64,000 bases of DNA from Octopus vulgaris (lineage: Eukaryota), in assembly GCA_951406725.2 (NCBI GenBank), contig OX597832.1, forward strand, positions 41,354,001-41,418,000, written 5' to 3'. Every line of letters starts with the position of its first letter. Position 1 is the stretch's first letter. The position numbers were made by a program, and so were the translations under genes. Shown piece after piece: positions 7,201 through 16,200 of the stretch. The notes under the pieces were generated by a model, which saw only the letters and a list, made by a program, of their open reading frames with translations, had not been told where the DNA came from and ran no database searches.

Positions 7201-10200
7201 AAACTAACGCACGAAAATTTTGAAAAGTTCCCCCAGTTCTGAAAAAAATCGATAAATTCGACATGGGGTCGAGAATCAGAAACACAAACCACAGACTGTC
7301 TAGGGGACGCAACTCGACTTTTTAACTCTCAAAAAAAAATTTACCATAATTTTTTTCCCATTTTTTTTTGCTATTTTTTGGCTATAACTCTCTAAAAATG
7401 CTTTATAGTTATTTCCCTTACAAACCCGAGCAACGCCGGGTGATACTGCTAGTTGAACAATAAACGAGAAGGTAAGCTGGTGAAATCAGTGGACAGTGTG
7501 AACGTTTACTCACCTTGTTTTCACTATAGTTAGCAATGACTACTCCAACAAAGAGTGTAAGTCCTATCATATAACCAATGAAGACAAACACATGAATGTA
7601 AATGGCATGAACCTGTAGAAAGAAAGCCGTAATAAATTCCTTATTAGGGATGGTCATGTTAGGAGTCACATGGACAAGAAGAAAGAAATTACAATCAACA
7701 TCACATTTTATATTAGTGTTATGATTCACTCAGGCAACATACTGTTAAAAATATATACATACACAAACACATATATGCATACACACACAAATACATATAT
7801 ATATATATATATACACACACACACACACACACACACACACACACATATATATATGTATATATATATATATATATACATATATATATACATATATATATAT
7901 ACATATATATATATATATATATACATATATATATACATATACATATATATACATATATATATATATATATATATATATATATATATATATACATATATAT
8001 ATATATATATATACATATATATATATATATATATATATATATATATACATATATATATATATATATATATATATATATATATATATATATATATATATAT
8101 ATATATATATATATATATATATATATATATATATATATATATATATATATATATATATATATATATATATATATATATATATATATATATATATATATAT
8201 ATATATATATATATATATATATATATATATATATATATATATATATATATATATATATATATATATATATATATATATATACATATATATATATATATAT
8301 ATATATATATATATATATATATATATATATATATATATATATATATATATATATATATATATATATATATATATATATATATATATATATACATATATAT
8401 ATATATATATATATATATATATATATATATACATATATACATATATATATATACATATATATATATATATATATACATATATATATATATACATATATAT
8501 ATATATATATATATATATATATATATATATATATATATATATACATATATATATATATATATATATATATATATACATATATATATATATATATATATAT
8601 ATATATATATATATATATATATATATATATATATATATATATATATATATATATATATATATATATATATATATATATATATATATATATATATATATAT
8701 ACATATATATATATATATATATATATATATATATATATATATATGTGTGTGTGTGTGTGTGTGTGTGTATGTATATATATATATATATATATATATGTGT
8801 TTTGTGTGTGTGTGTGTGTGTGTGTGTGTGTGTGTGTGTGTGTGTGTGTGTGTGTGTGTGTGTGTGTGTGTGTGTTGTGTGTGTGTGTTTGTGTGTGTGT
8901 GTGTGTGTGTGTGTGTGTGTGTGTGTGTGTGTGTGTGTGTATATATATATATATATATATATATATATATACATATATATATATATATATATATATACAT
9001 ATATATATATATATATATATATATATATATATATATATATACATATATATATATATATACATATATATATACATATATATATATATATATATATATATAT
9101 ATATATATACATATATATATATATAATATATATATATATAATATATACATATATATATATACATATATATATATACATATATATATACATATATATATAC
9201 ATATATAAATATACATACATATATATATATATATATAATATATATACATATATATATACATATATATATATATGTGTATATATATATATATATATATATA
9301 TATATATATATATATACATATATATATATATATATATATATATATACATATATATATATACATATATATATATATATATATATATATATATATATATATA
9401 TATATATATATATATATATATATATATATATATATATATATATATATATATATATATATATATATATATATACATATATATATATATATATATATATATA
9501 TATATATATATATATATACATATATATATATATACATATATATATACATATATATATACATATATATATATATATATATACATATATATATATATATATA
9601 TATATATATATATACATATATATATACATATATATATATATATATATATATATATACATATATATATATACATATATATATACATATATATATATATATA
9701 TATACATATATATACACATATATATATATACACATATATATATATACATATATATATACATATATATATATATACATATATATACACATATATATATATA
9801 CATATATATACACATATATATACACATACATATATATACATACACACACACACACATATATATATACCGGAGTAAACACATAAATGTGAAACAAGGTGGA
9901 AAAAAAGAGTACTCAAATACCAGTGGTAGAGTAATATGCTTTATTTAAAAGCAGCAGAAAGTTCGACAAAACCTGTTACTCTGATTTCCCGTTGCCGTTC
10001 ATCGGACAGTTTTAATGCGCGAAAGTATATATAAATGCGCATGCGCGAAAGTATGACTGCGCATGCGCGAAAGTGAGGCTCGCATGCGCTACCGTTTCAC
10101 TGCGCATGCGCGAACGTGTGAATGCGGATGCGCGAACGTGTGAATGCGCATGCGCGAACGTATGAATGCGCATGCGCGAGCGTGTGAATGCGCATGCGCG

Positions 10201-13200: not shown

Positions 13201-16200
13201 CATATGCGGACGTGTAACTGCGCATGCGCGAAAGTGTTACTGCGCATGCGCAAAAGTATTCCTGCGCATGCGCGAACGTAAGACTGCGCATGCGCAAAAG
13301 TATTCCTGCGCATGCGCGAACGTGTAACTGCGCATGCGCAAAAGTGTTACTGCGCATGCGCAAAGGTATTCCTGCGCATGCGTGGACGTGTAACTGCGCA
13401 TGCGCGGACGTGTAACTTCGCATGCGCGAAAGTATCACTGCGCATAGGCAAAAGTGTTACTGCGCCTGCGCGAACCTGAGACTGCGCATGCGCAAAAGTG
13501 TTACTGCGCATGCGCAAAAGTATTCCTGCGCATGCGCGAAAGTATGACTGCGCATGCGCAAAAGTGTTACTGCGCATGCGCAAAAGTATTCCTGCGCATG
13601 CGCGAACATAAGACTGCGCATGCGCAAAAGTGTTACTGCGCATGCGCGAACCTGAGACTGCGCATGCGCAAAAGTGTTACTGCGCATGCGCAAAAGTATT
13701 CCTGCGCATGCGCGAACGTGTAACTGCGCATGCGCAAAAGTGTTACTGCGCATGCGCAAAGGTATTCCTGCGCATGCGTGGACGTGTAACTGCGCATGCG
13801 CGGACGTGTAACTTCGCATGCGCGAAAGTATCACTGCGCATAGGCAAAAGTGTTACTGCGCCTGCGCGAACCTGAGACTGCGCATGCGCAAAAGTGTTAC
13901 TGCGCATGCGCAAAAAGTATTCCTGCGCATGCGCGAAAGTATGACCGCGCATGCGCAAAGTGTTACTGCGCATGCGCAAAAAGTATTCCTGCGCATGCGC
14001 GAACGTGTAACTGCGCATGCGCGAAAGTATGACTGCGCATGCGCAAAAGTGTTACTGCGCATGCGCAAAAGTATTCCTGCGCATGCGCGAACATAACACT
14101 GCGCATGCGCAAAAGTGTTACTGCGCATGCGCGAACCTGAGACTGCGCATGCGCAAAAGTATTCCTGCGCATGCGCGAAAGTATGACTGCGCATGCGCGG
14201 ACGTGTAACTGCGCATGCGCGAAAGTGTTACTGCGCATGCGTAAAAATTCCTGCGCATGCGCGAACGTAAGACAGCGCATGCGCAAAAGTATTCCTGCGC
14301 ATGCGCGAACGTGTAACTGCGCATGCGCAAAAGTGTTACTGCGCATGCGCAAAAAGTATTCCTGCGCATGCGCGGACGTGTAACTGCGCATGCGCGGACG
14401 TAACTTCGCATGCGCGAAAGTATCACTGCGCATGCGCAAAAGTGTTACTGCGCATGCGCAAAAGTATTCCTGCGCATGCGCGAACGTAAGAATGCGCATG
14501 CGCAAAAGTATTCCTGCGCATGCGCGAACGTAAGAATGCGCATGCGCAAAAGTATTCCTGCGCATGCGCGAACGTGTAACTGCGCATGCGCGAAAGTATG
14601 ACTGCGCATGCGCAAAAGTGTTACTGCGCATGCGCAAAAGTGTTACTGCGCATGCGCGAACCTGAGACTGCACATAAGTGTTACTGCGCATGCGCGAACG
14701 TGTAACTGCGCATGCGCGAAAGTATGACTGCGCATGCGCAAAAGTATTCCTGCGCATGCGCAAAAGTATTCATGCGCATGCGCCAAAGTATTCCTGCGCA
14801 TGCGCGAACATGCGCCAATTCGACGCGCATAAGCGCCATGCGCAAAAGTGTTACTGCGCATGCGCGAACCTGAGATTGCGCATGCGCAAAAGTGTTAATG
14901 CGCATGCGCAAAAGTACGTGTAACTGCGCATGCGCGAAAGTATGACTGCGCATGCGCAAAAGGTGTTACTGCGCATGCGCGGACGTGTAACTGCGCATGC
15001 GCGAAAGTATCACTGCGCATGCGCAAAAGTGTTACTGCGCATGCAAAAGTATTCCTGCGCATGCGCGAACGTGTAACTGCGCATGCGAAGTATGACTGCG
15101 CATGCGCAAAAGTGTTACTGCGCATGCGCAAAAGTGTTACTGCGCATGCGCGAACCTGAGACTGCGCATGTGCAAAAGTGTTACGGCGCATGCGCAAAAG
15201 TATTCCTGAAAACTCAGAAAAACTCAAAATAAACCAAAAAATGAAACAGCCAAGAATAGAAGTAAAACTGACTACCCATATACCAAAAAGGATGGAAACA
15301 AACAGCGCACACGGGTGTGTAGGTTCTACTTGAGAGGTACCCGCTGGCATGGAGAGGAAGGTGCAGGCTGCCGTTTTGCACATCGGGGATCCTGCCGCAG
15401 AGACACGAAACAGATCAGAAACAAACTAACAAAAGGAAAAGGGATGGACCACGCACCACCTACCCCAAAACGGAGGTATGCAGATGTGATGCGTGCCACA
15501 AACCGCCAACATGATGTTGTTGAAAGGGCTGCTGCTGAAGAAGAATCTTTTTTGTGCATGGCACAAAAGATTGTACAGCAGCTAACCTGGCTTCATCAAA
15601 CCCAAGCTCGCAGATGACACTACCCACAATATACAAGACCACCACAGCAAATAGACCCAGGGTGGACACCGCCGGCAACAGCATACACCTCACCTCGATG
15701 CTCCTACTGAACATCAGAGGACTGCAAACACTCAGTAACAGGACAAAAATCCCGATCTTGAGAGACTTTGTTGCATGCAATCAAGCCTTATGCATAGCAC
15801 TTACAGAAACGCACCTGAAACCGGACATAGCAGATGCGGAATTACACATACCACAGTATGTTGTACTACGGACCGACAGAAAAGAAAGGAGTCATGGAGG
15901 AGTTGCTATGTACATCCGTGAGGACCTCACACCCCAGGTCCTTTTCTCATACTCAAACTCGGTGTGTGACACACTAATTGTACATATAAGGCAACTTGAT
16001 GTAGTTGTGTGTGCTACATATCGCCCTCTAGATGCCCCAAGCCATGTAGGCAAGTTTGAAGACTACCTTATAAAAATAGAAGTTCTAATCACATTAGAAC
16101 ATCACATAAGTGTACTTCTTATGGGAGACTTCAATCTAACCAATGTCAGATGGCCCGAGGGCCTTTCTCTCCCAGGAATGACAAGATGTGAACGAGGACA

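Follow-up and report, generated by a model that had tools for sequence, protein, structure and literature searches.

A 22-bp satellite array with a palindromic NRF1-type core in an intron of Octopus vulgaris NALCN belongs to a multi-copy repeat family

INTRODUCTION

Tandem families shared among related molluscs at uneven abundance, and satellite-like arrays that accompany mobile elements, are the described systems closest to the repeat reported here, a 22-bp satellite array in an intron of the neuronal channel gene NALCN within a 64,000-nucleotide stretch of Octopus vulgaris DNA (GenBank assembly GCA_951406725.2, contig OX597832.1, positions 41,354,001 to 41,418,000; hereafter the window, to whose numbering all positions refer). 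The Spisula SSUsat family is reported as a G+C-rich tandem repeat present in several related organisms at very uneven abundance, with conserved and variable parts in its monomer (PMC5537241); the octopus repeat has these traits in common with it and differs in having a unit of 22 bp instead of 315 bp, half of which is a single palindrome, and in lying within an intron. In the oyster Crassostrea gigas, the central repeats of Cg_HINE Helentrons are described as dispersed satellite-like arrays beside mobile-element sequence (PMC7492417), as in the octopus, whereas no Helentron ends were found at the octopus array and its neighbours are retroelement fragments. The NRF1 site GCGCATGCGC (PMC10810270) normally occurs once or a few times per promoter, whereas the octopus intron holds 192 exact tandem copies, which are predicted sites. 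Penelope-like terminal repeats with minimal hammerheads are characterised, in the portions consulted of PMC4209133 and PMC8557442, by a short helix I, a palindromic helix III, high copy number and a TA target; a 148-bp stub beside the array resembles them in these respects, although its own hammerhead-like copy is degenerate: position U4 is occupied by C, and the G10.1-C11.1 pair is missing.

Our principal finding is that the array is one block of a multi-copy 22-bp family and is not unique to NALCN. CENP-B box satellites, GAGA-factor-bound AAGAG and structure-forming expandable repeats likewise combine a conserved short motif in a tandem unit with fold-back potential, a resemblance and nothing further. 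Promoter monomers in the 5' untranslated region (UTR) of long interspersed elements (LINEs), for example mouse L1, are rich in CpG, arranged in tandem and placed just before a LINE, as is the octopus array, but the octopus LINE is cut in the middle of open reading frame (ORF) 1 and the array is not in a 5' UTR position.

An earlier note on this DNA, made from the letters alone, did not recognise the repeat as a described satellite, and we likewise found no description of it in the literature searched (the motif, octopus satellites and centromeres, and NRF1 in cephalopods); Repbase, Dfam and the supplements of PMC8557442, PMC8967140 and PMC9476566 lay outside this scope and may already list the unit among unknown or simple repeats. 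The cephalopod repeat survey is reported to have set aside simple and unknown repeats (PMC8967140, seen in part). The repeat is a satellite family shared among related species and apparently undescribed, and it is unusual in that half of the unit is the consensus site of a major activator.

RESULTS AND DISCUSSION

Structure and composition of the array

Tandem Repeats Finder (TRF) called a head-to-tail tandem repeat at 10036-15208 with a period of 22 bp and 237.1 copies, preceded by a partial first unit that begins at about 10014, in agreement with the ~235 units at 10016..15208 of the earlier note; the array length is that of the assembly. The core TGCGCATGCGC occurs exactly 187 times, always within the array and never in the remainder of the 64 kb searched, and is followed by A in 97 cases and by G in 87, the two bases expected from the note; the corresponding counts were 185 for YGCGCAYGCGCR and 192 for GCGCATGCGC. 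When up to three mismatches were allowed, 230 cores were found, so the claim that nearly every unit carries the core stands for recognisable copies, while the exact sequence is present in only about four-fifths of the units. Core-to-core spacing was exactly 22 bp in 189 of 225 intervals. The array is the CpG island in AT-rich DNA that had been described, with a GC content of 53.5% and a CpG observed/expected (o/e) ratio of 1.68; the values elsewhere in the window are 36.5% and 0.41. Alternating purine-pyrimidine runs are present as claimed (188), but they are just 12 bp long, with one further run of 21 bp. The proposal that the sites sit roughly on one face of the helix was borne out only locally: a 22-bp period drifts by 27-42 degrees (~34) per unit, equivalent to a full turn per 9-13 units, and therefore sites share a helix face only among a few neighbours.

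It is highly improbable that, with the unit itself real, the 5.2-kb length or the junctions are artefacts of assembly. In 22 intervals the length deviates by a single base, in 16 cases within the A run, as is typical of long-read error; on the other hand, the array combines many unit types in a mosaic, is diverged at one end and contains no exact duplicate longer than 237 bp, unlike a collapsed or duplicated read, and the borders and phase of the intron are intact.

Occurrence of the family beyond NALCN

Parts of the stretch are contained in 20 of 24 listed sequencing runs, which carry four organism labels, and one run per label (X1, X4, X6 and X8) was compared over positions 9868-10135. No RNA run was listed among those that contain the stretch, apart from small shares in runs presumed to be RNA. 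The earlier note had suggested a search for the 22-mer beyond this locus; the unit is present in all four runs under the four labels and is not confined to NALCN. Counting both parts of the stretch together, the contig records matched numbered 4653 (X1), 3040 (X4), 3113 (X6) and 2440 (X8). In every one of the four runs the loose ends before 10036 lead into further units and their consensus carries the same core, and the consensus spacer of the loose ends in X4, X6 and X8 occurs once in the NALCN array. If the array were the sole source, and every 31-mer were its own contig, the summed depth could reach at most ~3,270 times the single-locus depth, and the observed peaks would require single-locus depths of 151 (X1) and 95 (X8); the depths of most of the listed pieces were well below these values (21-48 in seven of eight pieces for X1, 2.5-27.5 in all eight for X8), an excess that gives only a rough bound because summed contig depth is not copy number. 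Array-unit peaks were 10 to 50 times lower in X4 and X6. Such uneven abundance fits the satellite library model, in which a shared family occurs at differing levels among organisms, as is reported for Spisula SSUsat (PMC5537241).

Searches with the array pattern and with the stub pattern each gave no matches in the metagenome, viral and prokaryote collections, a generic pattern of three cores at 22-bp spacing matched one viral locus and no prokaryote genome, and the array translation gave no scored protein matches. The viral locus lies on the unrelated contig L001 (1001-1077), where GCGCATGCGC recurs four times, about every 22 bp, within an ORF of 358 aa; we presume a resemblance to the iterons of replication origins. 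Of two matches to the motif inspected in the literature, one was a primer. The other, a probe for the human SST1 macrosatellite, contains GCGCATGCGC once and offers a parallel, limited to one site, in a different tandem repeat (PMC12657243).

Internal history and constraint on the core

The two parts of the array distinguished by unit comparison are described in Table 1. The expanded part contains its longest exact internal duplicate, of 237 bp, at an offset of 396 bp, and shows a weak higher-order period of 1.27 kb. The diverged left end, the homogeneous remainder, the recurrent types and the block duplicate together point to expansion in place. None of the 11 core columns was polymorphic, compared with nine of the 11 spacer columns. 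A spanning tree of the 12 recurrent unit types, to which 132 of 189 full-length units belong, required one step in the core and 14 in the spacer, whereas one-off units carried 20 core and 24 spacer changes (Fisher p 0.011, in a test whose recurrent types are not mutually independent). Something favours intact cores among the variants that spread, and the data cannot separate NRF1 binding from palindrome structure.

The explanation that we favour, and to which we give an even chance, is that the array is a block of the 22-bp family that likely grew in place through preferential copying of intact fold-back palindromes, with NRF1 binding a likely by-product and no role as a NALCN control element. 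A short seed would have reached a TA insertion hotspot, and slippage and unequal exchange would then have enlarged it, leaving the diverged left end and the block duplications. Because the core is self-complementary any two units can pair, with a strong predicted fold-back, and pairing of cores on a single strand may have favoured misalignment between intact units. The full 12-bp palindrome becomes commoner from the old end (3 of 18 units) to the expanded part (114 of 208 units). Structure-driven selfish amplification is preferred over NRF1-driven retention since it does not depend on a protein or a chromatin state that is itself untested.

Several observations weigh against this explanation. 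Although 291-nt stretches fold better than their shuffles (z of -9.8 as DNA and -8.6 as RNA, with 0 of 200 shuffles as stable), such scores are expected of any repeated palindrome and are no proof of hairpins in vivo. Units with the full palindrome pair only slightly more stably (-16.0 versus -14.9 kcal/mol), a gain of only ~1 kcal/mol for A-type units, and T is retained at position 1 in 188 of 192 units, although in units of the G type a C there would make the palindrome perfect. The constraint on the core fits protein binding equally well, since one stretch of 10 bases forms both the palindrome and the NRF1 site, and the one-off changes with which the recurrent types were compared may partly be sequencing or assembly errors. 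As for the family itself, the depth in X4 and X6 could be below one array's worth, the other arrays are deduced from short contigs, and X1 need not be the species of the window.

NRF1 binding as an alternative

Rather than structure, binding by NRF1 may keep the core intact. The family would then have its origin in clustered NRF1 sites such as those of a mobile-element promoter, bound arrays would be transcribed or open and their spread thereby aided, and the whole would form a genome-wide, methylation-sensitive NRF1 sink; we regard this as somewhat unlikely while taking it seriously. As the earlier note had proposed, the core corresponds to the NRF1 consensus GCGCATGCGC. A 14-bp duplex with this sequence is reported to be bound by human NRF1 at a Kd of 0.31 uM (PMC10810270), and since a duplex of that length suffices, each of the sites, 22 bp apart, could be bound. 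The constancy of the core among spreading variants, and its recurrence in the loose-end consensus of all four runs, are what such binding would predict, and NRF motifs are described as marking unmethylated promoters in annelids and a sponge (PMC11292947, PMC8286816, both seen in part). The methylation sensitivity of NRF1 binding in vivo, also stated in the note, agrees with the consulted portion of PMC6923324, and methylation may tell against occupancy here. Fewer than 10% of octopus CpGs are reported to be methylated, with a relatively higher level in satellites than in transposons and an enrichment in introns (PMC9476566, in part), and the CpG-depleted DNA flanking the array (o/e 0.39-0.44) hints at a methylated gene body, which would block binding.

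The array itself shows no overall CpG decay, in that 10 transitions fall at CpG positions of the core and 12 at its other C/G positions over the whole array; in the 20 units of the older left end the corresponding numbers are 4 and 1, too small to judge. The little decay asserted previously is thus borne out in the counts, but it is weak evidence either way because so few octopus CpGs are methylated and the array is young and homogenised.

A bolder version, which we consider quite unlikely, is that the octopus carries a self-promoting satellite of NRF1 sites: NRF1 would bind unmethylated arrays and drive both their transcription and their dispersal by retroelement machinery, and the thousands of sites would titrate a housekeeping activator, at a dose differing more than tenfold between species. 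Should NRF1 indeed occupy the arrays, how much of this major activator is free in cephalopods would be set by the dose and the methylation of the satellite. If the repeat is only a selfish satellite, as in the explanation favoured above, it would constitute an apparently undescribed family and a clean case of a fixed core with a drifting spacer. The array also gives a direct test of whether a satellite motif is conserved for DNA structure or for protein binding, since it has a predicted binder that is known and for which a solved structure is available.

Flanking elements and the question of a mobile carrier

From left to right, the intron contains a 2-kb TA tract, the 148-bp stub, the array, the LINE (15209-18706) and a second TA tract (Table 1).

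Table 1. Features of the array, its neighbours and the host intron (window positions)
Feature	Position	Strand	Description	Evidence
NALCN domain III S6 exon	7514..7612	-	Downstream border of host intron	Protein match, splice borders and phase
(TA)n/(CA)n tract	7813..9866	.	2 kb, left of composite	Sequence, TRF
Stub	9866..10013	-	3' stub of high-copy TA-flanked repeat, likely Penelope-like element end	Read-contig depth, descriptor, PMC4209133 and PMC8557442 (both in part)
Hammerhead-like motif	9975..10009	-	Degenerate, minimal type I	Descriptor search
22-bp satellite array	10014..15208	.	~237 units of 11-bp core TGCGCATGCGC plus variable 11-bp spacer	TRF, motif counts
Older, diverged array end	10014..10500	.	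Exact core in 11 of 20 units; unit position 12 usually G; includes spacer types that form the consensus in other runs	Unit comparison
Homogenised, locally expanded part	10500..15208	.	176 of 210 cores exact; ~10 recurrent spacer types	Unit comparison
LINE ORF1 remnant	15209..15617	+	CCCH-type finger; starts ~110-200 residues into protein	HMMER, alignment
LINE ORF2	15614..18618	+	APE endonuclease and reverse transcriptase; frameshift near 16400-16490, stop at 17392	Domain search, ORFs
LINE 3' UTR and tail	18619..18706	+	Short ATCA-repeat tail	Sequence
(TA)n/(AG)n tract	18707..18886	.	Right of composite	Sequence, TRF
NALCN domain III pore exon (LEGW)	18939..19059	-	Upstream border of host intron	Protein match, splice phase

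The stub is likely the end of a Penelope-like element. Its summed depth was 1e5-2e6 in all four runs and TA loose ends were listed for X1, X4 and X6, indicating a high-copy repeat at (TA)n; no ORF with a Penelope-type reverse transcriptase and GIY-YIG domain adjoins it, and no ORF of a Penelope-like element was found within the window. The hammerhead descriptor matched nowhere else in the window on either strand, compared with 2 matches in 60 shuffles. The matching copy lacks one stem III base, a G being inserted behind 9984 in the copies of all four runs, and copies in other contigs are better paired than this one with its two non-canonical features; a search of 9700-10300 against Rfam returned 28 matches, none at the gathering score and none to a hammerhead. 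Cleavage at this motif is unlikely because the stem III base is lost and minimal motifs require dimers. The motif lies in the sense of the NALCN pre-mRNA.

On the other side of the array, the ORF1 remnant aligns from residue 125-207 of relatives that are 265-371 aa long, i.e., it is their C-terminal half, and the relatives have 110-200 more N-terminal residues. Nine relatives were found by profile-free HMMER and were aligned without P0003 and P0008 (finger-only or repeat matches) and P0009 (a short fragment); the only named ones are Octopus vulgaris proteins with 42-46% identity, and a word search among longer proteins for ORF1 gave none. Since the LINE, which from its motifs we take to be a member of the CR1/L2 group, is cut in mid-ORF1, the array is not the intact 5' UTR of that LINE. 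No target-site duplication beyond 2 bp was found for it. Both retroelement fragments point outward, their truncated 5' ends meet the array edges exactly and there is no TA at either junction, an arrangement that a single event of repair or template switching at a break in TA sequence might explain.

The same abutment, with TA lacking at both junctions, would also suit an array that is an internal module of a mobile element (a Helentron-type central repeat, a Penelope terminal repeat or a LINE 5' monomer promoter) and was delivered with it. Occurrence in four organisms fits carriage by an element, and the dispersed satellite-like arrays of the oyster are described as central repeats of non-autonomous Helentrons (PMC7492417, in part). 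We nevertheless judge this decidedly improbable, given that the LINE begins in mid-ORF1, that neither 9860-10035 nor 15195-15700 shows an evident terminal hairpin of the Helentron type or pair of subterminal inverted repeats (such ends could have been lost), that the listed array-side loose ends lead into more units, and that two X8 contigs (records 29 and 30) that match up to 10013 continue into sequence not placed on the array.

We abandoned a narrower candidate, in which the array would regularly form part of the interior of the hammerhead-bearing element, as no listed contig joined both parts. Mean depth at 10021-10029 was 31.7, 0, 23.1 and 0 in X1, X4, X6 and X8, respectively, compared with peaks of ~1e4-2e6 on either side, and this gap shows neither a private nor a false junction. 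An argument from allele shares (A at 10069 expected in ~52% and found in 2-9%) was also dropped; X1 depth falls from ~4.9e5 to 1.6e5 at that point, and A-type contigs may be clipped.

Host gene and intron

NALCN is encoded on the minus strand. The exon at 19059-18939 aligns to residues 1091-1130 of human NALCN with an E value of 5.9e-26, which confirms the host gene named in the earlier note, and the downstream exon at 7612-7514 has GT/AG borders and a matching phase. The intron between them is 11,326 bp long. The earlier description of the neighbourhood was correct as to the NALCN intron and overlooked the two elements in contact with the array, the truncated LINE and the end with the hammerhead-like motif.

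The note had further proposed a NALCN-specific role, with the array retained as an enhancer, a local sponge or a chromatin barrier. The 187 exact sites within an intron of a neuronal channel gene and the CpG-island-like composition speak for such a role, yet we consider it very unlikely and found it unsupported: the unit belongs to a multi-copy family present in all four runs, it sits amid retroelement debris in a TA tract (the composite of retroelements and array fills 8,843 of the 11,326 intron bases), the array bears signs of recent expansion and its phasing drifts a full turn every 9-13 units. Regulation of NALCN is the least supported part of the significance of the array.

The domain III pore exon has its splice donor only ~230 bp (18707-18938) away from the 3' tail of the LINE. 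The window also contains both mutually exclusive pore exons of NALCN domain II on the minus strand, the E form (QEGW) upstream at 62205-62050 and the K form (QKGW) downstream at 53523-53385. E and K exons of domain II are reported as typical of molluscs and other lophotrochozoans, and the pair, together with the E in domain III, corresponds to the EEEE/EKEE choice known in molluscs (PMC3557258, in part).

Two further repeats were observed near the host intron. At 20151-20581, seven 60-bp units with a 121-bp dimer period and a 97% match apparently form the tandem inside of a repeat resembling a short interspersed element that recurs in the intron region. A short element at 7080-7455 ends in a GC-rich hairpin followed by CTAGT, which we take to resemble the end of a non-autonomous Helitron or Helentron.

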